This document shows, one piece after another, positions 14,342 through 64,000 of a stretch of 64,000 nt of DNA. The stretch is from Patescibacteria group bacterium UBA2196 (lineage in GTDB: Bacteria > Patescibacteriota > Patescibacteriia > UBA2196), in contig DCVE01000014.1 of assembly GCA_002328025.1 (NCBI GenBank), positions 5,882 through 69,881 of the forward strand. The letters are read 5' to 3'. The position numbers and the translations under genes are program-made. Position 1 is the stretch's first letter. Every line of letters starts with the position of its first letter. The notes beneath the pieces are model-generated. The model was not told the origin of the DNA and ran no database searches. It worked only from the letters and a program-made list of their open reading frames with translations.

Positions 14342-15832
14342 ATGAAAAAAACATTTTTCTTCTTCTTACTGGCGTGTTTTTTAATGGCACCGGCTATCAC
14401 CAAGGCCGATAATTTGTCTGATTTTATTATTACTGATATTACCTTAGAAGATTCAGACGGACTCTGGGTTTATTTTCAAAACATTGGTGGTAGTACAGTT
14501 TTTGGTAAATTGCCAATTGAAATCGTCGATTTGGATACCAGTGAATCATATTATCAAGAAAATGAACAAATGTATTGGACGAACACGACTTACAAACTTT
14601 ATCTCGGGATGCTTAAAAACCGCAATCGTAGTAGTTACCGCTTACAGGCCATAATAGATACGCACAATTTTTTTAGTGAATCTAATGAAAATAATAATTC
14701 TTTAATTAAAACTTTTTATAAACCAGTGCCGTTTTGTACAGAAACTGATGGCGGTAGAAATTATGATCAAGCGGGTAGTGTTAGCGGCATTGCTGAATGG
14801 GGTAAGGGTTCACCATCGTCAAATTTTGTTGATAGTTGTCTTGATAGTTTAAAATTAAACGAAATGTTTTGTGGTGCAGATAAATATGTATATCAGGAAG
14901 CTTACACTTGCCCACATGGATGTTCAAATGGTGTTTGTATAAAACTGCCAGAAAATCCACCCGTTGTTGAGGTAAAAAAACCAGATCTTGCCATTCAAAA
15001 CGTACAAACAATTGATTTAAGAAAAAACCGTGGACAATTTGACTGGCGATTAACATACGAAGCTATTAATTTGGGAGAAACTAATGTCAATAAACCTTTT
15101 AAGATTATTGGTAAAAATTTAACTAATAATCAAATTCTGGGCGAGATAACCCCGGATTCTGGTGAATTTAAGCCAAATGTTTTGCTTTCTTCGCCCGGGT
15201 ATTATTTTGAGGGAAAACTTGGTAAAGAATTTATATACGGGGTAAACAACATAGAAATTTGCATTGATGCTAACAACATCATCTCAGAAAGTAATGAAAA
15301 TAATAACTGCCTTACAAAGCAGATAGATGCTACTCAATATAATATAGATAGATCGTTTGCTAAAAGATTAGCAGGAAAGTTGCTTTTGGGTGTTGAACAG
15401 GGTGGCGCAATCTGGTATGTAGATTTAATTAATAATCAACGTCATTTAGTAACTTGGGACAACGCCATAACTTTATTTCAAAAATTTGCTCTTGGTATTT
15501 TGGATCAGGATTTATTGAAAATCCCAGCCGACTTATCCAGCGTTAAAGCGGAATTAGATTCTGATAATGATGGATATAGTGATGTTATTGAGTTGCAGAA
15601 CAATTATAATCCTTATCTTTTAGGGGGTAATAAATTTAAAATTGACAAAAAATTAGCTTCTCGGTTAAGAGGTAGGTTTTTATTGCAAGTTGATCAACAT
15701 GGACCAATTTGGTATGTAGCTCCAAATGGTTTTCGATATAATATTCATTGGAATAATTTAATGGATGTTTTTACCAAACTTTCACTGGGTATTAATAATT
15801 CTGATTTAAACAAAATAGAAGTAGCACCATAA
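14342..15832 (+). CDS. secreted repeat protein (signal peptide, internal repeats, DxDxDG calcium-binding-like motif)
   Basis: N-terminal MKKTFFFFLLACFLMAPAITKA signal; repeated ESNENNN(S/C)L and two ~60-aa C-terminal repeats (GxxLLxVxQxGxIWYVxxxxxR). Confidence 0.5.
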   Translation: MKKTFFFFLLACFLMAPAITKADNLSDFIITDITLEDSDGLWVYFQNIGGSTVFGKLPIEIVDLDTSESYYQENEQMYWTNTTYKLYLGMLKNRNRSSYRLQAIIDTHNFFSESNENNNSLIKTFYKPVPFCTETDGGRNYDQAGSVSGIAEWGKGSPSSNFVDSCLDSLKLNEMFCGADKYVYQEAYTCPHGCSNGVCIKLPENPPVVEVKKPDLAIQNVQTIDLRKNRGQFDWRLTYEAINLGETNVNKPFKIIGKNLTNNQILGEITPDSGEFKPNVLLSSPGYYFEGKLGKEFIYGVNNIEICIDANNIISESNENNNCLTKQIDATQYNIDRSFAKRLAGKLLLGVEQGGAIWYVDLINNQRHLVTWDNAITLFQKFALGILDQDLLKIPADLSSVKAELDSDNDGYSDVIELQNNYNPYLLGGNKFKIDKKLASRLRGRFLLQVDQHGPIWYVAPNGFRYNIHWNNLMDVFTKLSLGINNSDLNKIEVAP

Positions 15833-17810: not shown

Positions 17811-17969
17811 TTATTTGTCGTTTTCTACCACTTTGACATTGGCGGTGTTGCCATCAATTTCAGTTATCATGACAGTCATGCCACACTCTGGACAGTCTAA
17901 AAACGTACCGACAGACACTTCTTCCAATAATTCGTTTAAATTGTTGCATTCGGGGCAAGAATAATTCAT
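17811..17969 (-). CDS. LysW-like zinc-ribbon small protein (52 aa), not in the ORF track
   Basis: MNYSCPECNNL...DCPECGMTV two CPEC knuckles as in LysW/amino-group carrier proteins; ends NDK rather than EDWGE. Confidence 0.45.
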   Translation of the reverse strand: MNYSCPECNNLNELLEEVSVGTFLDCPECGMTVMITEIDGNTANVKVVENDK

Positions 17970-18030
17970 AGATTTTTTTTAATATTAAATAAAAGTTTTT
18001 ACATTTTAATTTTAATTCTTTGTCTAAAAC

Positions 18031-18912
18031 ATGTCAAATTATATTTTTAAATCATTATTGCTGTCCAAAAAAAATAATCAAGAAATTTATTTGGTCAACG
18101 AAACAATAAATCCAACTGGCTCACATAAAGACAGGTCGTTTTCTGTTTGGATAGCCAAAGAAGTGGCAAGTGGCGCCACTGGTTTTGCCATTTCTTCTTC
18201 TGGTAATGCCGCTGCTGCTGCGGCTTATTGGTGTAATAAATTAAAACGGCCATTAGAAATTTTTATTTCTGAAAAAATTAAAAAAGAAAAGTTACGAAAA
18301 ATTGTATCTTTTTGTCATCCAATAATTAAACATTCAACTAAACAAATCAATCAGAATTTTGGTATCATAAAAATTCATTTAGTAAAAAAACCAATTTTTG
18401 AAGCTTTTCAAATGGCTAAAAAAAAAGGTTTTGTTTTTTTACGGGCTTCAATCTCAACTCAAGCACTGGTGGGTTATCAATCTCTGGCTGAAGAAATAAA
18501 CACAGCTCTACCCAACTTGGGCTCAATTTTTATACCAGCCTCGTCTGGTACTTTGGTGGCTGGTCTCTATCAATATCTCAAGTCTAAACCACAATTTCAT
18601 GTGGTCCAAACGACTGTGGTTAATACCTTAGTCAAAGATTTTGATCAATATTATACTAAAGAAAGCAAATCCACAGCTGACGCGGTGGTGGATGTGGTGG
18701 GGCATCGCAAAAAAGAAGTTGTTGAAATAATTAAAAGTAGTCGCGGGTTTGGTTGGACAATTTCTAATCAAGAGTTAAAATTAGCTCAAGATGAGTTAAA
18801 TGAAATAAACGTTTATTGTTCTGCTACGTCTGCTTTGGGTCTGGCTGGTTTGTTAAAAGCTAGGCAGGAAAAATTTAAAATAAAAGAACCTCTATTGATT
18901 ATTATCACTTAA
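18031..18912 (+). CDS. PLP-dependent enzyme, fold type II (threonine synthase/cysteine synthase-like)
   Basis: NPTGSHKDR (PLP lysine), SSGNAAAA. Confidence 0.55.
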   Translation: MSNYIFKSLLLSKKNNQEIYLVNETINPTGSHKDRSFSVWIAKEVASGATGFAISSSGNAAAAAAYWCNKLKRPLEIFISEKIKKEKLRKIVSFCHPIIKHSTKQINQNFGIIKIHLVKKPIFEAFQMAKKKGFVFLRASISTQALVGYQSLAEEINTALPNLGSIFIPASSGTLVAGLYQYLKSKPQFHVVQTTVVNTLVKDFDQYYTKESKSTADAVVDVVGHRKKEVVEIIKSSRGFGWTISNQELKLAQDELNEINVYCSATSALGLAGLLKARQEKFKIKEPLLIIIT

Positions 18913-18918
18913 TTTTTT

Positions 18919-20196
18919 ATGAGGATAGTCTTTGTCAGTAACGATTTGGAAAAAGTATCTTACTGTGTGGAATCTATTACTGACGCCAAGTTGATAACTT
19001 TTGCTGATCAGAAAGACAAACCGTGGCCTAAAAATTGGTCAGTTGTTTTTTTTCATATTTATAAAAATTTTAGCACATTAGCTTTGTTATCTAACCCACG
19101 TTTTAAAGATTTTGTTTTTGAAAATAGCATTGTTTTTTTGGCGGTATTTAAAAATAGCTATTTAATTGAATTGACAGCCCAAAAAAACAATCTTAAACTT
19201 TTAAATCCACCCAGTTTTTTAATTGAAAAAATTGAAGGTAAAATTTCCCAATTAATTTTTTTTGAAAAACTAAAAAATTATTTTCCACCGTTTATTGTTG
19301 CGACGCCAGAAAGCCACACTTTTCAAGATTTAGTAAAAATACTGGGCAATAAAATTATTGCTCAATTTAACACCAGTCATTCTGGTGAAGGCACGTTTTT
19401 TTTGGATGCAGATTTATGGCAAAGCTGGTATCACAAATTTCCTCAACGCCCAATACGTTTAAGTCAGTTTATTGGGGGCGAAAATTTAACTCTTAATTTG
19501 CTAGTTTTACCGCAGGGAATTTTAAATGGGCAATTAAGTTTGCAATTGACTGGATTAGAAAATTTAACCGATCAAAAGTTTGCCACCGTTGGGAATGCGT
19601 GGGTTGATTTTGATAGCGAAGTTTTACAACAAGCCAAACTTTTAAGTATTGAAGTGGGAAATATTTTACGAGGAAATAATTTTTTTGGACCTGCTGGTCT
19701 TGATTTTGTTTATGACAAAAATGCTTGTCGGCTGTATTTAATTGAAGTCAACGCTCGTCAGACAGCTTCTTTTAATTTGGAAAATTGGTTACTAAAGCTG
19801 GCTGGCGGTCAACCCATGTTTGATTTTTTAATTAATTATTGGCAAGGGAAAATATTAAATAAACTGCCAGAAAATTTTACCAAACTTTCCGGTGGCCAAA
19901 TTGTTTGGCGTGCGAATAAAGATGATCAGGGTGTTTTAAATCAAGCCCCAGCCACAGGAATTTATACACTCAAAGACGGACAGGTTGTTTATCAAGAAAA
20001 GCGTATAATTTTAAAAAATAAAAACGAGTTTTTAGTTTTTGTTAAAACCACCGGTAGATCAATAGTTGCAGGTGAAGAAATTTTAAAAATACAAACGGGT
20101 TGTAATTTTTTATCTCACAACAATGATTTGTCGCCAGAAATTAAACTTCTGATTGCTGAGTTGAAAAAAGAGACCAAGTTTGCTAAAATAAAGTAA
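18919..20196 (+). CDS. ATP-grasp domain protein
   Basis: SHSGEGTFF, FGPAGLDFVYDKNACRLYLIEVNAR (ATP-grasp E/N/R motif); 7 nt after PLP gene. Confidence 0.55.
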   Translation: MRIVFVSNDLEKVSYCVESITDAKLITFADQKDKPWPKNWSVVFFHIYKNFSTLALLSNPRFKDFVFENSIVFLAVFKNSYLIELTAQKNNLKLLNPPSFLIEKIEGKISQLIFFEKLKNYFPPFIVATPESHTFQDLVKILGNKIIAQFNTSHSGEGTFFLDADLWQSWYHKFPQRPIRLSQFIGGENLTLNLLVLPQGILNGQLSLQLTGLENLTDQKFATVGNAWVDFDSEVLQQAKLLSIEVGNILRGNNFFGPAGLDFVYDKNACRLYLIEVNARQTASFNLENWLLKLAGGQPMFDFLINYWQGKILNKLPENFTKLSGGQIVWRANKDDQGVLNQAPATGIYTLKDGQVVYQEKRIILKNKNEFLVFVKTTGRSIVAGEEILKIQTGCNFLSHNNDLSPEIKLLIAELKKETKFAKIK

Positions 20197-33201: not shown

Positions 33202-34251
33202 ATGTCAGTTGCAAAAATTTTTATTCTAACAGTCTTGGCTTTCGTGGGCGCCTTTTGGTGGGCGCCAATTTTGGCACGCTTTTTAACCAAGCACAAAATG
33301 TGGAAAGAAGCGCGTCAGCTTACCACCGATGGTCGGGTGTTGGTGACATTTCAAAAAATAGAAAAAGATCATAAAATTAAAACTCCTCGTGGAGGCGGTC
33401 TTTTAATTTGGGTTACAATTTTATTTTTGGCACTTTTGATGTCTGTGCTTGATAATTTTTTTCCCGGAGTTTTTAGTAATTTAGAATTTTTATCACGTTC
33501 CGAAACATGGTTGCCACTTGGAATTTTGGTTTTGGCTGGAGTGCTTGGTTTTGCTGATGATATTTTAACAGCCAAAGGCAAAGGTAAATATTTGGGTGGT
33601 GGTATGAGTTTAAAACGCCGCATTGTTATGGTTTTTGTAATTGGTTTGGTTGGCGCCTTGTGGTTTCATTTTAAACTTGGTTGGGACACCATCCACCTTC
33701 CATTTTTTGGTGATTTTTATATTAATGGTTTTTATATTCCTCTGTTTGCTATTACCATGGTGGCGGTTTTTTCTTCAGGTGTTATTGATGGCATTGATGG
33801 TCTTTCGGGGGGAGTTTTTGCTCCGCTTTTTGCCACCTATGGTGTGATTGCGTTTTTGCGTGGCCAAACTGATTTAGCTGCTTTTTGTGCCATGATCGCC
33901 AGCACGCTGGCAGTATTTTTGTGGTTTAATGCTCCGCCAGCACGTTTTTATATTGGTGAAACAGGTATTTTGGCTTTGACTACAACTTTAACTGTGGTTG
34001 CTTTTATGACCAACGCTGTTTTGTTATTGCCGTTGGCTGGTGTTATGTTGGTCATCACCACCGCTTCGGATATTATTCAACTTACGCATCGTAAAATTAA
34101 AGGTCATAAATTGTTTCCTGCGGCACCCATTCATCACACCTTTCAACTGCAAGGTATAAAAGATGAAACCATTGTTATGCGTTATTGGATTATTACTGGC
34201 ATGGCTTGCATTACCGCAATTATGATTTATTTATTGGATAAAGGATTATAG
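33202..34251 (+). CDS. mraY: MraY/WecA-family phospho-sugar transferase (likely MraY)
   Basis: GFADDIL, PAAPIHHTFQL...RYWII. Confidence 0.65.
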   Translation: MSVAKIFILTVLAFVGAFWWAPILARFLTKHKMWKEARQLTTDGRVLVTFQKIEKDHKIKTPRGGGLLIWVTILFLALLMSVLDNFFPGVFSNLEFLSRSETWLPLGILVLAGVLGFADDILTAKGKGKYLGGGMSLKRRIVMVFVIGLVGALWFHFKLGWDTIHLPFFGDFYINGFYIPLFAITMVAVFSSGVIDGIDGLSGGVFAPLFATYGVIAFLRGQTDLAAFCAMIASTLAVFLWFNAPPARFYIGETGILALTTTLTVVAFMTNAVLLLPLAGVMLVITTASDIIQLTHRKIKGHKLFPAAPIHHTFQLQGIKDETIVMRYWIITGMACITAIMIYLLDKGL

Positions 34252-34253
34252 TT

Positions 34254-35004
34254 ATGTATCAAATTAAAGAATTATTGAAATATAAAGACTTACAGCATGC
34301 CACTTCAACATTAGAAGACGGAAATATGAGTTTTAAGTTTGATGATGAAAAAACGGTTTTTAATAACAGAAAAAAAATTTTTTAAAAAAATAAAAATAAA
34401 TTCCAAAGATGTTATTGATATGGGGCCTGTGGTTGACAAAGCAAATAAGGTGGTTTTTGTAAAAAAAAAAGACGGTTTGAATTCTTTGGATCAGAAAATT
34501 GAGCCAGTTTGGGGTGATGCCTTAATAACAAACAGAAAAAAATATTATTTAGCCATGAGTTTTGCTGATTGCTTTGGAATAATTTTTTATACACCTAAAA
34601 AAAATGTTTTAGCCCTGGCCCATGCTGGTTACGTTCCAATCAGTGCTGGTATTATTGCTAGGACATTATCTAAATTGAAAAAGGATTTTAAAATAAACGC
34701 AGAAGATTTGTTTTGTGTGGTAACTCCGGGAGCACAAGATTGTTGTTTAAAATATAAAAAAGTTTTTAAATCGGTTTTACAGACAAAAAAAGCCACAGAG
34801 CATATTTATAGACGACAAGGTTATTATCATCTTGATCTTTTAAAATGGATACTGGATGATTTAAAAGATGGGGGTATCAACGAGGTGGTGATAAGTAATT
34901 TTTGCTCCGCGTGTGGTAATAAGAATGTTTTTTATTCAAAAGAAAAACAAAATAAAGGTCTGCAAAAGAAAGGTAGAAATATGTTAATTGTTGGTATGAG
35001 ATAA
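34254..35004 (+). pseudogene. pgeF: pgeF/yfiH (DUF152 purine nucleoside phosphorylase/peptidoglycan editing factor) split by a frameshift in an A8 run
   Basis: frame A (34254-34385) encodes LQHATSTLEDGNMSFKFDDEKTVFNNRKKIF; frame B (34339-35004) carries DALITNRKK...MSFADCFGII...ALAHAGY; 7 instead of 8 A at 34370-34377 joins them. Confidence 0.55.
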
Positions 35005-35010
35005 AAATTT

Positions 35011-35829
35011 ATGGAAAATTTATTTTATAAAATTAAATATTATTTTGGCACTATTTATCGCGGATTAATCGGTCGTTTTCATAATATTTTTGATAAAGCG
35101 CCAGCAATTAAAAGCGGGGCTGAATGGTATTCTTTGGGCGATTCAACTCAGGGTCGCAATATTCGGTGTTATAAATTTGGACAAGGTGAAAAAAAAATAT
35201 TACTAATGGGTGGAATTCATGGCAATGAAGTTGGCACGGTTAAACTTGCGCATAATTTAATTAATTGGTTATGTGGCAACCAATTAAGATTTTCCAATCT
35301 AACAATTTTTGTTGTGCCGTGTTTAAACCCAGATGGAGCTGAAGTTGCCAGACAATTTCCAGACTATAAGCATCGTGGTCGGATTGGTCGTCTCAATGCG
35401 CGCGATGTGGATTTAAACCGCAACTTTCCAACAACTGATTTTATGAGCCAGACAACTTGGAAAACCGGTCGCAATTATCATGATGAAACCATCGCGGTTT
35501 TTGGGGGAGACTTTGCTGGCTCTGAAGCAGAAACAAAAATAATTATGGACCTAATTAAAAAAGAAAACATCAAAAATATCATCGCATTTCACAATATGGG
35601 CAGTGATGTTATGCCGGTGAGTGGTGATGCGGTGGCAGAAACTTGGGCTCAGATTTATTTTAAAAAAGCCAAATTTAAAATCAGATATAATGTCAATTTG
35701 TCCGGTAGCTTGTCCAGTTGGGCCAAAGAAAATAATATTCATTATTTAACCGTCGAAGGTAGTTCACGCTGGGGAAGTGATTGGCATCGACAGTATAAGG
35801 CCATAGAGGAAATATTGGCTTCCATGTAG
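35011..35829 (+). CDS. M14-family zinc carboxypeptidase (murein peptide amidase-like)
   Basis: GGIHGNEVG, NRNFP, IAFHNMG. Confidence 0.6.
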   Translation: MENLFYKIKYYFGTIYRGLIGRFHNIFDKAPAIKSGAEWYSLGDSTQGRNIRCYKFGQGEKKILLMGGIHGNEVGTVKLAHNLINWLCGNQLRFSNLTIFVVPCLNPDGAEVARQFPDYKHRGRIGRLNARDVDLNRNFPTTDFMSQTTWKTGRNYHDETIAVFGGDFAGSEAETKIIMDLIKKENIKNIIAFHNMGSDVMPVSGDAVAETWAQIYFKKAKFKIRYNVNLSGSLSSWAKENNIHYLTVEGSSRWGSDWHRQYKAIEEILASM

Positions 35830-44509: not shown

Positions 44510-45925
44510 ATGAGGAAGGTAATTTTAATTTGTTTCGCTATTATACTTGTTTTTACTGCGGTATTTTTTTGGTCTGCAAAAACCAAGGCTGTTGTTGAAA
44601 ACTCGGTCATTAAAATTTTTAGTACCAAGACCGGCGCATTAGAAAGCGCCATCGCCATTAAAGATATTCGTCCCAACTATTCTTTTGCTTTGGTTGATTT
44701 GGGTGGCGACGGACAAAAAGAAATTTTAATTGGTGCTGGCACTGATATGGAACCAGTTGTAAAAATCTATCGGGCTGATGGCTCGTTAATCAATAGTTTT
44801 TTGGCTTATGCCCAAAATTTTAAAGGCGGTGTCAATGTTTCGGCTTGTAATTTTGATAATGATAATTTGGATGAAATTTTAACCAGTCCGTTTCGCAACG
44901 GTTCGGCACATATCAGAATTTTTGATGGCTATGGTCATCCAAAGATTAATGCTGGTTTTTTTGCTTTTGATAAAAAAGAAACCACCGGCGCTCAAAGCGT
45001 GTGTGCTGATGTAAATGGCGACAAAATTGATGAGATTATTGTGGTGGGGGTTGAAAAGAATGTTCGTGAGATTAGAGTTTTTGATGTCAGTGGTAAATTA
45101 TTAAGTAAAAATAAAATAGATTTTATCGGTAACGATATCAGTTTGGCCAGCCTTGATTTGGGCGGCGATGGTATTGAAGAAATACTCGTCGCTGGTGGAC
45201 GTGGTGACCAACCGTTAATAAAAATATTTCGTGGCGACTTAAGTTTGGTTAATGAATTTTTGGGCTATGAAGATAAAAATTTTAAGATGGGGTTGTCTGT
45301 TTTTGGCGCTGATGTTGACAATGATGGCAAAGGAGAAATTATAGTCACCCCGGGTGTTGGTGGTAAAGCACAAATTAAAATTTTTGATGGTTATGGTAAT
45401 TTAAAAAATACTAATCTGGACATTATTTTTGCGGATAAATTTTTAGGTGGTTTAAAGGTGGCAGTCGGCGATTTGGATGGTGATTTGGAGTTGGAATTTA
45501 TCACTGTACCCAAAAGTTTGCCAGTTGGTAAAACAGATCTTTATAAATATATTGATGTTGATGTCAGTGAACAACGTTTTCGATATTATCAAAACGGTTA
45601 TTTGGTTGATGATTTACAAACTTCCACCGGCAAACCATCTACACCCACCAGATTGGGAGAATTTACAGCTTTTTCAAAATATGAAATGGCTTATGGTGGA
45701 GCCGACGGACAAAGATGGGGTATGCCATATTTTATTGGTTTTTATAAATCCGGTTCACTGGAAAATGGTATTCATGAGCTGCCCTTTCTTGGTGGACGAC
45801 GCGAAGGTGAGCGCAGTTTGGGTATCGCGGTTTCGCATGGTTGTGTGCGTTTGGGTATTGGCCGAGCCAGAGAAGTTTATGATTGGTTAGAAATTAATAA
45901 AACTAAAGTTTTTGTTCATAAATAA
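44510..45925 (+). CDS. L,D-transpeptidase (YkuD domain) with N-terminal FG-GAP/VCBS-like repeats
   Basis: repeats DLGGDG.EEIL / DVNGDKIDEI / DVDNDGKGEI; C-terminal catalytic SHGCVRL. Confidence 0.8.
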   Translation: MRKVILICFAIILVFTAVFFWSAKTKAVVENSVIKIFSTKTGALESAIAIKDIRPNYSFALVDLGGDGQKEILIGAGTDMEPVVKIYRADGSLINSFLAYAQNFKGGVNVSACNFDNDNLDEILTSPFRNGSAHIRIFDGYGHPKINAGFFAFDKKETTGAQSVCADVNGDKIDEIIVVGVEKNVREIRVFDVSGKLLSKNKIDFIGNDISLASLDLGGDGIEEILVAGGRGDQPLIKIFRGDLSLVNEFLGYEDKNFKMGLSVFGADVDNDGKGEIIVTPGVGGKAQIKIFDGYGNLKNTNLDIIFADKFLGGLKVAVGDLDGDLELEFITVPKSLPVGKTDLYKYIDVDVSEQRFRYYQNGYLVDDLQTSTGKPSTPTRLGEFTAFSKYEMAYGGADGQRWGMPYFIGFYKSGSLENGIHELPFLGGRREGERSLGIAVSHGCVRLGIGRAREVYDWLEINKTKVFVHK

Positions 45926-45936
45926 AATATTAAAAT

Positions 45937-46506
45937 ATGTTAAATAAAAAATTTATCCAGAAATTAAAAAAAGATTATGAAAAACAAGAAGGCGAGCGAC
46001 GGCAGATAATCGCTTTGTCTAATGATGTTTTGCATGCTTCAAAAAGAGTTATTTTTTCTTTACATCGTTTTGAAATACAACCAGCCGGGGAGAGTTTAAA
46101 AAACATTGAAAAAACTTTTTTAGCTTTAAAAAAGAAATTTGGTTTGGAAAGGTTAAACGTGGAAGGTTCTTACAAAGCCGGAGTGGAAGAATATGTGGAG
46201 GCCAAAATGTTTTATTTATTTATGACTGGTGCTAAGATTGATGCTATTAAGGGCCTAGATTTGAGCCTAGAAGGCTATTTGGGCGGCATTTGTGACCTAA
46301 CTGGTGAATTAGTTCGTTTGGCCACCAATCTGGCAGCTGACGGCAAAATTGTGGAAGCCAAGAAAATTAAGTCCACCATTGTTGCGGTCCTAGCTGAACT
46401 GGTGGGTTTTGATCTAACCGGCTATTTACGCACTAAATATGATCAAGCCAAAACTAATTTGCGCAAAATTGAACAGATTAATTACGAACTAAGTTTAAGA
46501 AAATAA
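45937..46506 (+). CDS. hypothetical helical protein (possibly translin-like)
   Basis: GGICDLTGELVR segment; weak. Confidence 0.25.
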   Translation: MLNKKFIQKLKKDYEKQEGERRQIIALSNDVLHASKRVIFSLHRFEIQPAGESLKNIEKTFLALKKKFGLERLNVEGSYKAGVEEYVEAKMFYLFMTGAKIDAIKGLDLSLEGYLGGICDLTGELVRLATNLAADGKIVEAKKIKSTIVAVLAELVGFDLTGYLRTKYDQAKTNLRKIEQINYELSLRK

Positions 46507-47642: not shown

Positions 47643-48362
47643 ATGAGAAAAAATATTTTAATCACAGGTATGCCAAGAAGTGGTAAATCCACAATTCTAA
47701 AAAAAATAATTAAAAAATATGATAGAAAGGTTGGTTTTGTTACTGATGAAGTTCGAGAAAATGGAGAAAGAGTTGGGTTTCAAATAGAAACACATACTGG
47801 AGAAAAAACCATGCTTGCAAATATAAATTTTAAAACCAACTTTAAAGTTTCAAGATATTTTGTTGATGTTAATAATCTTGATCAGGTAATCCCAAAAGTT
47901 TCTGTGTTTAATAATGATGATTTATTATTTCTTGATGAAATCGGTCAAATGGAATTATTTTCAGAAAAATTTAAAAATCTTGTTTACGAGTATCTAGATT
48001 CTTCAAATGTTTGTATCGCAACTTTATCTAAGATATTTAGTGATGCATTTACTGAAAAAATAAAAAACAGAGATGATGTAATTATTGTTGAAATAAATGA
48101 AGAGACTCGTGATGTGAAAGAAAAGTATCTTGAAATCTTATTAACAAAAATTTTAAAGGCAAAAAGATACATTTCCGATTTAGAAAGATTTATGGTTAAC
48201 CAAAATGAGGCAAACATGGTTACAGATCATGGAACTAGAAAATTAACAAAACAAAAAGAAGGATGGATTTGTGATTGTGATTTTTTTCTAGAAAATGATA
48301 TCTGTAGTCATGTTATTGCACTCAACGAATATCAAAAAATCATCAATGAACCTCAAAATTAA
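47643..48362 (+). CDS. THEP1-like NTPase fused to a C-terminal SWIM-type zinc finger
   Basis: ILITGMPRSGKST...GFVTDEVRENGERVGFQI...FLDEIGQMEL; C-terminal CDCDFF...CSHVIAL. Confidence 0.6.
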   Translation: MRKNILITGMPRSGKSTILKKIIKKYDRKVGFVTDEVRENGERVGFQIETHTGEKTMLANINFKTNFKVSRYFVDVNNLDQVIPKVSVFNNDDLLFLDEIGQMELFSEKFKNLVYEYLDSSNVCIATLSKIFSDAFTEKIKNRDDVIIVEINEETRDVKEKYLEILLTKILKAKRYISDLERFMVNQNEANMVTDHGTRKLTKQKEGWICDCDFFLENDICSHVIALNEYQKIINEPQN

Positions 48363-63045: not shown

Positions 63046-63075
63046 AATTTTAATTTGAGCTAGTATTGGTATATT

Positions 63076-64000
63076 ATGATTTTTAATTTTTCCAGATTAA
63101 AGAATTTTGATTGGTCTTTACTGTTAATAATTACACTTTTAGTTTGTATGGGTTTGGCTGTTATTTATAGTGTCACCTTAAGTCAGGAAAAACCGGATTA
63201 TAGTTTGCTTAATAAGCAAACTATTTTTTTTGTGCTTGGTATTTTTTTATTATTTGTTTTTGCTTTTTTTGACTACCGTGTTTTGGGTTCACTAAGCTTA
63301 ATAGTTTATATTTTTTCATTATTACTTTTGTTGGCCGTGCTTTTTTTTGGGAGTACTTTTAAGGGTACTCAGGGTTGGTTTAGTTTGTTTGGTTTTGGTT
63401 TTCAGCCAGTCGAATTTGCTAAATTGGCTTTAATAATTTTTTTGGCGAAGATTTTGAGTGACAATACTGAGGAGCATTTGTCTTTAAAATTCATGCTATT
63501 GGTTCTATTGTTGACCATTTTACCGGTCAGTCTTGTTATTTTGCAGCCGGATTTTGGTTCAGCCATGGTACTTTTAGTTTGTTCTGTAGGTTTATTGTGG
63601 TTTGCTGGGTTGCCTAAAAAATACTTATATATTTTATTTGTCGTTTTGGTAAGTGTGCTGATTGTGAGTTGGTTTTTTTTCATGATGCCTTACCAAAAAG
63701 ACAGAATTACGACTTTTTTAAATCCAATGCGTGATCCCCTAGATCAAGGCTATAATGTCAGGCAATCCATAATTGCCATTGGTTCTGGTGAATTTTTGGG
63801 GCGTGGATTGGGTTTGGGTCCACAAAGTCAACTTAAGTTTTTACCAGAAACAGCCGCTGATTTTATTTTTGCTTCATTGGGTGAAGAGTTGGGTTTTGTT
63901 GGAGTCTTTTTAATTTTTGGTCTTTATTTTTTATTTCTGTGGCGCATTTATAAAATAATAAAAACCACGCGCGATAATTTTTCCATGCTTTTAATTTTGG
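63076..64000 (+). CDS. ftsW: SEDS-family peptidoglycan glycosyltransferase FtsW/RodA (3' partial, runs off window)
   Basis: FGFQPVEFAKLALIIF, LQPDFGSAMVLL, GRGLGLGPQSQLKFLPETAADFIF; not in the ORF track because it has no stop. Confidence 0.8.
   Translation, partial: MIFNFSRLKNFDWSLLLIITLLVCMGLAVIYSVTLSQEKPDYSLLNKQTIFFVLGIFLLFVFAFFDYRVLGSLSLIVYIFSLLLLLAVLFFGSTFKGTQGWFSLFGFGFQPVEFAKLALIIFLAKILSDNTEEHLSLKFMLLVLLLTILPVSLVILQPDFGSAMVLLVCSVGLLWFAGLPKKYLYILFVVLVSVLIVSWFFFMMPYQKDRITTFLNPMRDPLDQGYNVRQSIIAIGSGEFLGRGLGLGPQSQLKFLPETAADFIFASLGEELGFVGVFLIFGLYFLFLWRIYKIIKTTRDNFSMLLIL

Follow-up and report, generated by a model that had tools for sequence, protein, structure and literature searches.

What would a member of the Patescibacteria, a large and mostly uncultured share of bacterial diversity with minimal biosynthesis, do with a small protein that looks like the carrier protein LysW? 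This question is raised by a locus in a 64,000-nucleotide (nt) stretch of contig DCVE01000014.1 from Patescibacteria group bacterium UBA2196, which we refer to as the window. Here, a 52-amino-acid (aa) open reading frame (ORF) on the minus strand faces two genes on the plus strand, one for an enzyme dependent on pyridoxal phosphate (PLP) and one for an ATP-grasp ligase (coordinates in Table 1). The original prediction, made from the letters of the DNA, described the trio as a possible carrier-protein system. An ORF search finds all three ORFs where that prediction placed them, and the TGSHKDR and LIEVNAR motifs of the two enzymes are present as described. The arrangement is also as claimed, with the start codons of the small gene and the divergent PLP gene 61 nt apart and 6 nt between the stop codon of the PLP gene and the start of the ATP-grasp gene.

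We find that the small ORF is a genuine gene whose product is, by sequence and predicted fold, a homologue of LysW, and that it belongs in most lineages to a conserved gene cluster with murB, mraY and murC. The protein ends in lysine, where LysW ends in glutamate, and we tentatively propose that it may be a carrier of reversed polarity for cell-wall building blocks.

The small ORF belongs to a conserved gene family

The 52-aa ORF is a genuine gene, because it appears in public gene calls, has homologues, carries fewer nonsynonymous than synonymous differences and occupies a fixed position in its locus. The identical protein has already been gene-called on eight public contigs. Homologues with 25-88% identity keep both CxxC knuckles and the terminal lysine, and relatives whose ATP-grasp protein is 34-48% identical to that of the window have a minus-strand ORF of 51-65 aa at the same place. 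When a profile of five small proteins is used for searching, at least 739 protein clusters are found, and all the named ones are from Patescibacteria. The best 120 of these homologues are all 51-68 aa long and most of them carry precomputed Pfam Zn_ribbon_LysW matches; many 54-aa relatives have precomputed matches to PF21344. Across 63 orthologous genes of 54 codons, the median nonsynonymous difference (pN) is 0.24 and the synonymous one (pS) 0.76. No fusion of the small protein to an enzyme is present among its best 120 homologues or among the top 120 homologues of the PLP enzyme. In public databases the family has no name, or a spurious automatic one such as "ribosomal protein S27E", "RpoP" or "sulfonate ABC transporter".

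Kinship with LysW and a conserved lysine tail

The NCBIfam model of the LysW/ArgW carrier domain aligns with residues 1-50 of the window protein (E-value 2.3e-7). When the family profile is compared with the whole PDB, the two best matches are the LysW proteins of Thermus thermophilus and Thermococcus kodakarensis (3wwl, 5k2m). An hhalign comparison with T. thermophilus LysW gives a probability of 96% and an E-value of 4.9e-9 over 41 columns; of the LysW sequence used, residues 3-37 are confirmed by the PDB match. The AlphaFold2 (AF2) model has a predicted local distance difference test score (pLDDT) of 86.5 and five short strands, as expected for LysW. In a Foldseek search of the PDB with this model, the top six matches are all LysW chains, aligned over the full length with template modelling (TM) scores of 0.74-0.82 and a root-mean-square deviation (rmsd) of 1.1-2.7 Å, and the scores collapse below these six. 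Together, these matches bear out the two-knuckle LysW-like architecture and length that had been noticed by eye.

LysW ends in EDWGE, and the gamma-carboxylate of the last glutamate carries the substrate. The window protein lacks this glutamate and ends in NDK, as had been noted correctly, and we find that a terminal lysine is a feature of the whole family. It is present in 120 of 120 database proteins (the best 120 of the at least 739 clusters) and at 85 of 85 loci. Among 98 members of 54 aa, D51 is found in 97 and E52, G53 and K54 each in all 98, which equals the conservation of the four cysteine ligands; over the whole stretch of the last seven residues, conservation is about that of the zinc ligands. 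In the clade of the window the tail reads x-(N/T/A)-D-K, with VENDK in the window protein itself. The pLDDT drops to 54 at the last two residues, and the tail is predicted to be flexible. Such a combination, predicted flexibility with conservation at the level of metal ligands, is characteristic of a segment that enzymes read in their active sites.

The small protein has a net charge of -8 (family median -7) and an isoelectric point (pI) of 4.2, and a regulator that binds DNA or other nucleic acid is unlikely given these values. We also considered that the small ORF could be the split-off N-terminal cysteine domain of an arginyltransferase (ATE), and rejected this, as ATE_N is absent from the 25 listed of 41 Pfam matches (E-value up to 1) and the predicted fold is that of LysW.

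A conserved cell-wall gene cluster in Patescibacteria

To describe the gene neighbourhood, one genome per GTDB species was scanned with the small-protein profile, which gave 80 loci, and hidden Markov models of the cluster proteins were then searched in these. The loci are mostly from Magasanikbacteria and other Parcubacteria, and some are titled Wolfebacteria or Taylorbacteria. Several records with the cluster bear the title "uncultured Gammaproteobacteria bacterium" or "Candidatus Udaeobacter" (L022, L023, L027, L032, L034, many others, and L092), and their bins have probably been mislabelled.

The small gene adjoins the PLP gene in well over a hundred Patescibacteria genome and metagenome sequences examined. 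At 85 of 85 loci the two genes diverge, and the gap between them has a median of about 96 nt. Its tightest partner is the PLP enzyme, not the ATP-grasp protein. The order in the full cluster is murB on the opposite strand, followed by the genes for the ATP-grasp protein, an NlpC/P60-like protein of about 260 aa, MraY, a 215-aa ATE_C-like protein and MurC, then the small gene, which is convergent with murC, and the PLP gene. The full cluster is found in about 55-65 loci where the contigs reach far enough, and the same cluster is present in loci that were reached through the ATP-grasp protein or the PLP enzyme instead of the small gene. The synteny of the trio that the original prediction proposed to check in related genomes is therefore conserved. 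The transferase-like gene next to the trio in the window, and in most lineages the NlpC/P60-like amidase and the embedding among murB, mraY and murC, had not been part of that prediction.

The MurC and MraY proteins of the cluster are the best matches to Escherichia coli MurC and MraY, and a few loci also have MurE- and MurD-like genes close by, so that a canonical murein pathway is present and these are housekeeping genes of it. In the clade of the window, the genes for the transferase, the small protein, the PLP enzyme and the ATP-grasp protein are kept together although murC and mraY are not adjacent, which argues that these four are the functional core. In this reduced form, the order is transferase, small gene, PLP enzyme, ATP-grasp and RmuC, and it is shared by the close relatives of the window (L007, L008).

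The PLP enzyme is threonine-synthase-like

The 293-aa protein is, by its sequence, a genuine fold-type II PLP enzyme that is distantly threonine-synthase-like; the fold type agrees with what had been read from its motif. It matches Pfam PALP (PF00291) with an E-value of 2e-35 and 123 bits, against a cut-off of 35. The PLP lysine lies in the motif GSHK (K33, invariant), and the SSSGN and SSGT loops are conserved. The best NCBIfam models are those of threonine synthase, the top one with a score of 81.9 against a cut-off of 421, and TIGR00260 with 35.4 against 167. In the PDB, the family profile finds ThrC first (3.5e-21), followed by serine dehydratase, threonine deaminase and the serine and aspartate racemases, and the closest solved relatives are short threonine synthases. 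A true threonine synthase is ruled out, as the protein stays below the cut-off of every equivalog model and has a family-specific LRQSTDD where threonine synthase has its phosphate-binding motif NSxNPxR.

More than 2192 clusters make up the family, all of about 295 aa and with no fusions. Every organism-named match among the top 120 homologues is from Patescibacteria, and the only NCBI name for the family is "PLP-dependent lyase/thiolase".

The ATP-grasp protein is neither LysX/RimK nor Ddl

In the 425-aa protein the Mg/ATP motifs of ATP-grasp enzymes are intact, with K108, E276, N278 and R280 invariant. Its sequence matches ATP-grasp_3 only in Pfam (E-value 4.7e-4), and the NCBIfam model PRK06524 "biotin carboxylase" with 62.7 bits against a cut-off of 684. 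A whole-library profile search finds 2403 representatives with an E-value of at most 1e-3, which make up a Patescibacteria-centred family. No match was found in a PDB search with the single sequence. The family profile matches only 7r8p, which we take to be a staphylococcal L-amino-acid ligase, over 40 residues, with Ddl at an E-value of about 3. The AF2 model (pLDDT 91.7) adds a C-terminal beta domain to a three-domain core, an architecture shared with PurD and biotin carboxylase. In Foldseek, PurD, biotin carboxylase, PurK and the L-amino-acid ligase RizA are at the top, with TM-scores of about 0.65 and 10-14% identity. The predicted fold is that of the PurD, biotin carboxylase and L-amino-acid ligase group.

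The original prediction had asked whether this protein resembles LysX/RimK or D-Ala-D-Ala ligase, and neither resemblance is supported. No RimK or LysX model matches at an E-value of up to 1 in Pfam and NCBIfam, and no LysX, ArgX or RimK chain is found in the PDB profile search at an E-value of up to 10 or among the 50 Foldseek matches listed, so that a LysX/RimK affiliation can be discarded. An identity as Ddl is discarded as well, since there is no match to Pfam Dala_Dala_lig and E. coli DdlB finds nothing in the loci searched. One relative matches TIGR01205 with 18 bits against a cut-off of 246, and we found no similarity in sequence to Ddl-type ligases beyond the generic ATP-grasp core. 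The protein does not pass the family models of biotin carboxylase and carbamoyl-phosphate synthase either, and the likeness to these enzymes is at the fold level only; neither BCCP nor carboxyltransferase neighbours were found in the loci examined.

Transferase-like, amidase-like and NUDIX partners

The 215-aa protein matches Pfam ATE_C with an E-value of 1.7e-4 and 22.6 bits, against a cut-off of 25. The NCBIfam arginyltransferase models give E-values of 1.4e-9 for the window protein and 5e-18 for the orthologue in locus L010, all of them below the cut-offs in score. The cysteine-rich ATE_N part is not detected in the protein, and a sequence search of the PDB gives no match either. Conserved motifs are HYSYPFY, YLGS and YKxQF. 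By these profile matches, the protein is probably homologous to the catalytic half of the ATE/Bpt aminoacyl-tRNA-protein transferases. The gene is present in the cluster in about 70 loci. In two loci the ATE_C-like domain is fused to the N-terminus of MurC in a protein of 680 aa (L079:10172-12211 and L084:10056-12110, both on the minus strand), which ties the transferase to the UDP-MurNAc-peptide pathway.

The cluster protein of about 260 aa (L010:7273-8091 and its orthologues; P0020, P0148, P0167, P0211) has a weak but consistent match to NlpC/P60 and Amidase_6. It has a conserved N-terminal region with PYFNNxR...RGxLRVLIGKG and a C-terminal domain in which the DCSG and histidine motifs of an NlpC/P60-like amidase are kept. 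Among the best 150 representatives of the ATP-grasp family, 27 have an NlpC/P60-like domain fused to the C-terminus of the ligase, and the domain was seen in all four of those that were tested.

A NUDIX domain occurs in two forms, fused to the ATP-grasp protein in a protein of 547 aa (L098:4161-5804, plus strand), and encoded on its own, as a 185-aa protein whose gene separates murC from the small gene in about 35 loci (e.g. L018:3972-4541, minus strand). Both forms hint at a nucleotide-linked substrate, or at an editing step, within the cluster.

A possible carrier of reversed polarity

We propose that the small protein may be a LysW-style carrier of reversed polarity, in which a substrate tethered to the terminal lysine would supply a building block of the cell-wall peptide. 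We favour this reading by analogy with LysW and consider it quite possible, without regarding it as probable. In this model, the tail of the carrier would be threaded into the active sites of its basic partner enzymes. The ATP-grasp protein would activate the carboxyl group of an amino-acid substrate and join it to the epsilon-amino group of the terminal lysine, which would leave the alpha-amino group of the substrate free. Next, the PLP enzyme would act on the tethered group, or use it as a reactant, in a racemisation or a beta/gamma-replacement. Hydrolysis by the NlpC/P60-like amidase, which is often part of the same polypeptide as the ATP-grasp protein, would free the product and regenerate the carrier. 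Finally the product would enter the stem or side chain of peptidoglycan through MurC and the tRNA-dependent transferase; it would be a short peptide or a single amino acid, either a D-amino acid or a non-proteinogenic one. In a less favoured variant, the ligase would extend the alpha-carboxylate of the terminal lysine in the manner of RimK/LysX.

Attachment to the epsilon-amino group is favoured for three reasons. The swap of glutamate for lysine turns the carrier from a carboxyl donor into an amine acceptor; the ligase resembles enzymes that activate the carboxylates of small molecules (PurD, L-amino-acid ligases) and not RimK/LysX; and PLP chemistry needs a free alpha-amino group, which would be blocked in a linkage of the LysW kind. 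That ligase and amidase are fused is readily understood in this model, since both would handle the same tail. The embedding of the module among cell-wall genes suggests that the product is likely to serve the cell-wall peptide and not a free secondary metabolite.

Several observations weigh against this proposal. The window protein scores below the curated LysW cut-offs (TIGR01206 13.1 against 53.2, NF041070 30.7 against 75 and PF21344 19.8 against 27 bits). The EDWGE tail is absent, as the family ends in (E)xVDEGK-COOH, and none of LysZ, LysY, LysJ, LysK and LysX/ArgX is among the neighbours of the small gene. Three of the four testable features that define LysW and the amino-group carrier proteins (AmCP), namely scores above the cut-offs, the EDWGE glutamate and Lys-gene neighbours, are thus missing and only the LysW fold is present, so the protein should not be filed as LysW. 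The ATP-grasp gene is adjacent to the small gene only in the clade of the window and lies about 4-6 kb away elsewhere. The small gene is on the strand opposite to all its partner genes, which is unusual for a stoichiometric component of a pathway. Within the 64-kb window there is no NlpC/P60-like partner, so the release enzyme is unseen there. The fusion of ATP-grasp and NUDIX means that the ligase may act on a nucleotide-linked precursor (UDP-MurNAc-peptide) and not on a protein. The basic pI of the partner enzymes is not distinctive, as the background median is 8.5; electrostatic complementarity was tried as a test and is uninformative, since the genomic background is equally basic. Lastly, every chemical step of the model is one that we infer, with the adduct, the binding and the activities predicted only.

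The carrier-system reading of the original prediction thus stands in part. Kinship with LysW and conserved synteny support it, the ORF is conserved, the ATP-grasp protein is neither a fragment of carbamoyl-phosphate synthase nor a Ddl, and the synteny is strong. A LysW/ArgW system proper is not what we find, as there is no glutamate tail and no LysX, LysZ, LysY, LysJ or LysK; the chemistry of carriage is the putative part.

Comparison with known systems

The closest parallel is to the LysW/ArgW AmCP of the lysine and arginine pathways of Thermus and archaea. Both are strongly acidic two-knuckle zinc ribbons of about 52-54 aa, homologous over residues 1-41, with a flexible conserved C-terminal tail of the pattern xDxGx, and their neighbouring genes code for an ATP-grasp ligase and a PLP enzyme, and in most lineages also for a peptidase. 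By analogy, the enzymes for loading, the PLP step and release would parallel LysX, LysJ and LysK, respectively. The differences lie in the individual parts. The terminal residue is lysine here (DEGK/NDK) and glutamate there (EDWGE). The ATP-grasp protein is by its predicted fold PurD/biotin-carboxylase/L-amino-acid-ligase-like, not RimK/LysX-like, and the PLP enzyme is ThrC-like and of fold type II, where LysW has an aminotransferase of fold type I. An NlpC/P60-like cysteine amidase takes the place of the M20 metallopeptidase, and a kinase and a reductase are missing. The context is murB-mraY-murC and not amino-acid biosynthesis, and the named members are from Patescibacteria only.

The combination of a small carrier and a fold-type II PLP enzyme is shared with CysO-CysM of Mycobacterium tuberculosis. 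There, the PLP enzyme uses the C-terminus of the small carrier protein as a nucleophile: it enters the PLP site and attacks the aminoacrylate, and the product is later cut off by a peptidase. However, CysO is ubiquitin-like and has a Gly-Gly thiocarboxylate end, whereas the protein described here is a zinc ribbon that ends in lysine and has no adenylating or sulfur-transfer enzyme.

An ATP-grasp ligase beside a supplier of D-amino acids is also found in the operon of the D-aspartate ligase Aslfm and aspartate racemase in Enterococcus faecium, and in VanT with VanC. In these systems the product modifies a peptidoglycan precursor, as we propose here, but they work without a carrier protein and their racemases are not ThrC-like. 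In glutathionylspermidine synthetase/amidase (GspSA), an ATP-dependent amide-forming domain is fused to a papain-fold cysteine amidase that cuts the same kind of bond. The domain order and the families differ from the fusion seen here, and GspSA works on small molecules, not on the tail of a protein. Finally, in the PEARL scaffold-peptide pathways (3-thiaglutamate) an amino acid from an aminoacyl-tRNA is added to a small ribosomal scaffold, tailored and released by a protease. The PEARLs are, however, LanB-like and not ATE/Bpt-like, their scaffolds are unstructured peptides, and they have no link to the cell wall.

Alternative explanations

The strongest rival to a carrier is a pair of enzymes that work on free substrates. 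The PLP enzyme would act as a racemase or synthase and give a D- or unusual amino acid, and the ATP-grasp protein would ligate it to a second amino acid, as an analogue of Ddl, or to the side chain of the UDP-MurNAc-peptide, on the model of the E. faecium D-aspartate ligase and racemase or of VanT and VanC; the two could even be non-orthologous replacements of Alr and Ddl. The small protein would then be an accessory, a chaperone or an allosteric partner. The short gap between the two genes in the window (6 nt), the cluster built around murB, mraY and murC, and the hint of a nucleotide-linked substrate in the ATP-grasp and NUDIX fusion all fit such a pair. So do the matches of the PLP profile to serine and aspartate racemases and the SSSGN loop, which keeps a serine before Gly-Asn. 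For the ligase, some relatives weakly match an archaeal "Ddl-like pseudomurein ATP-grasp" model as well as TIGR01205, but these Ddl signals, of 18-27 bits where the cut-offs are 245-500, are very weak. No canonical DdlB homologue is found by phmmer with E. coli DdlB in 1.5 Mb around the cluster, which would leave room for a replacement; however, this search covers 20-kb flanks only, from which the lack of ddl is uninformative about the rest of the genomes, and E. coli DdlB matches nothing there, the ATP-grasp family included. What free substrates leave unexplained is the flexible tail with its terminal lysine, as invariant as the zinc ligands, and they give no account of the amidase that is fused to the ligase. 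We regard this pair as somewhat unlikely.

The tail could, alternatively, be a mimic that is never modified. The sequence Asp-Glu-Gly-Lys-COOH would imitate the end of the UDP-MurNAc tripeptide (gamma-D-Glu-L-Lys-COOH) and, by filling the active site of a cell-wall enzyme such as the amidase, the ligase or the transferase, inhibit or time that enzyme. An invariant terminal lysine with acidic residues two to three positions upstream would suit this role, as would divergent transcription from a short common intergenic region, which is seen with many regulators, and restraint would plausibly be needed for an NlpC/P60-like amidase that the cluster places in the cytoplasm. However, the clade of the window keeps the small gene with an xxDK tail, not DEGK, and with no amidase nearby, and we know of no LysW-fold protein that acts in this way. 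The resemblance to a stem peptide is, moreover, purely an argument from chemistry, and we judge the mimic improbable.

Another use of a terminal lysine is known from E. coli Lpp, a small protein that is joined to peptidoglycan through its C-terminal lysine by YkuD-family enzymes. With this precedent, and with a YkuD-domain protein encoded in the window (44510-45925), the small protein could be an anchor that an L,D-transpeptidase attaches to peptidoglycan. It has no signal peptide or lipobox, though, its N-terminus is the first strand of a four-cysteine zinc ribbon, which is a cytoplasmic feature, and the YkuD gene is 26 kb away and outside the conserved cluster, which makes an anchor very improbable.

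The shortness of the small ORF, the AT-rich genome and the lack of an obvious Shine-Dalgarno sequence ahead of it might suggest a chance ORF or an artefact of annotation, but this is refuted by conservation: at least 739 homologous clusters, conserved knuckles and tail, pN below pS, a fixed position in 85 loci and a confident prediction of the LysW fold.

The module and its surroundings in the window

The features of the module are given in Table 1. The candidate promoter match of the small gene overlaps the start of the PLP gene.

Table 1. Features of the module in the window, with positions counted from its first nucleotide.
Feature	Position	Strand	Remarks
ATE/Bpt-like aminoacyl-tRNA-protein transferase homologue, 215 aa	17160-17807	+	ATE_C region only
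Small ORF, 52 aa	17811-17969	-	begins MNYSCPECNN...DCPECGMTVMITEIDGNTANVKVVENDK; acidic zinc ribbon with predicted LysW fold, two CPEC knuckles, tail VENDK
Divergent intergenic region, 61 nt, AT-rich	17970-18030	.	common to the small gene and the PLP gene
Candidate sigma-70-like promoter of the small gene, TTGACA-17-TAAAAT	18037-18009	-	consensus scan 11/12, consensus match only
Fold-type II PLP enzyme, 293 aa	18031-18912	+	TGSHKDR; PF00291
ATP-grasp carboxylate-amine ligase, 425 aa	18919-20196	+	LIEVNAR Mg/ATP motif

The window is a typical low-GC segment of Patescibacteria (Candidate Phyla Radiation, CPR). It carries many aminoacyl-tRNA synthetases, an ATP synthase operon, gyrB and dnaE. No amino-acid biosynthesis genes are seen in its annotation, and an Rfam scan of the window finds no RNA family.

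Other genes of the cell wall are present in the window. A small group at 33202-35829, between pheS and a gene for an NYN-domain protein that is followed by pheT, contains an mraY-like gene, a PgeF-like peptidoglycan editing factor and an MpaA-like M14 murein-peptide amidase. The mraY-like gene, which thus stands next to the PgeF-like and MpaA-like genes about 13 kb downstream of the module, matches TIGR00445 with 119.7 bits, below the cut-off of 192 and much weaker than the MraY of the cluster in the relatives. The protein encoded at 44510-45925 consists of FG-GAP repeats and a C-terminal YkuD L,D-transpeptidase domain, and a fragment of FtsW lies at the edge of the window (63064-63999). The YkuD protein and the FtsW fragment indicate that the organism makes peptidoglycan.

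Two further genes belong to families that are mainly eukaryotic and archaeal and are unexpected in a bacterium. One codes for a Translin-family protein (45937-46506; PF01997, E-value 3.9e-25) and the other for an NTPase_1 (THEP1-like) protein (47643-48362). The module is preceded by cvpA-tatD genes, and just upstream of these a gene at 14342-15832 codes for a secreted protein of 496 aa. This protein contains a bacterial TSP3 repeat and two CARDB-like modules, and a repeated SESNENNN motif stands at the end of each of the two modules.

Implications for cell-wall synthesis in Patescibacteria

How Patescibacteria obtain the D-amino acids and diamino acids of their walls is poorly understood. Five lineage-specific genes that lie among essential murein genes are good candidates for the supply of amino acids to the wall. 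If the PLP enzyme and the ATP-grasp protein were non-orthologous replacements of Alr and Ddl, this would help to annotate thousands of genomes in which they are now called "PLP-dependent lyase/thiolase" or "hypothetical".

To our knowledge, LysW-type carriers are known only from the lysine and arginine pathways and a few secondary-metabolite pathways, always with a terminal glutamate, and in the literature we found no description of a LysW-like or carrier protein in Patescibacteria or in the context of peptidoglycan. A sister family of LysW that always ends in lysine, in the murB-mraY-murC cluster of many Patescibacteria, would bring the use of carrier proteins into cell-wall synthesis and give it a reversed chemistry. 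In its complete form, which we think rather doubtful, the scheme would have Patescibacteria build, epimerise or edit a building block of the peptidoglycan peptide on a "carboxyl-group carrier protein" derived from LysW, with the epsilon-amino group of its terminal lysine as the point of attachment, with a ThrC-like PLP enzyme, release by an NlpC/P60-like enzyme and a hand-off to MurC and the ATE-like transferase. If this scheme is true, it would be the first carrier-protein-dependent step in the synthesis of murein precursors and the first LysW-type carrier of reversed polarity.

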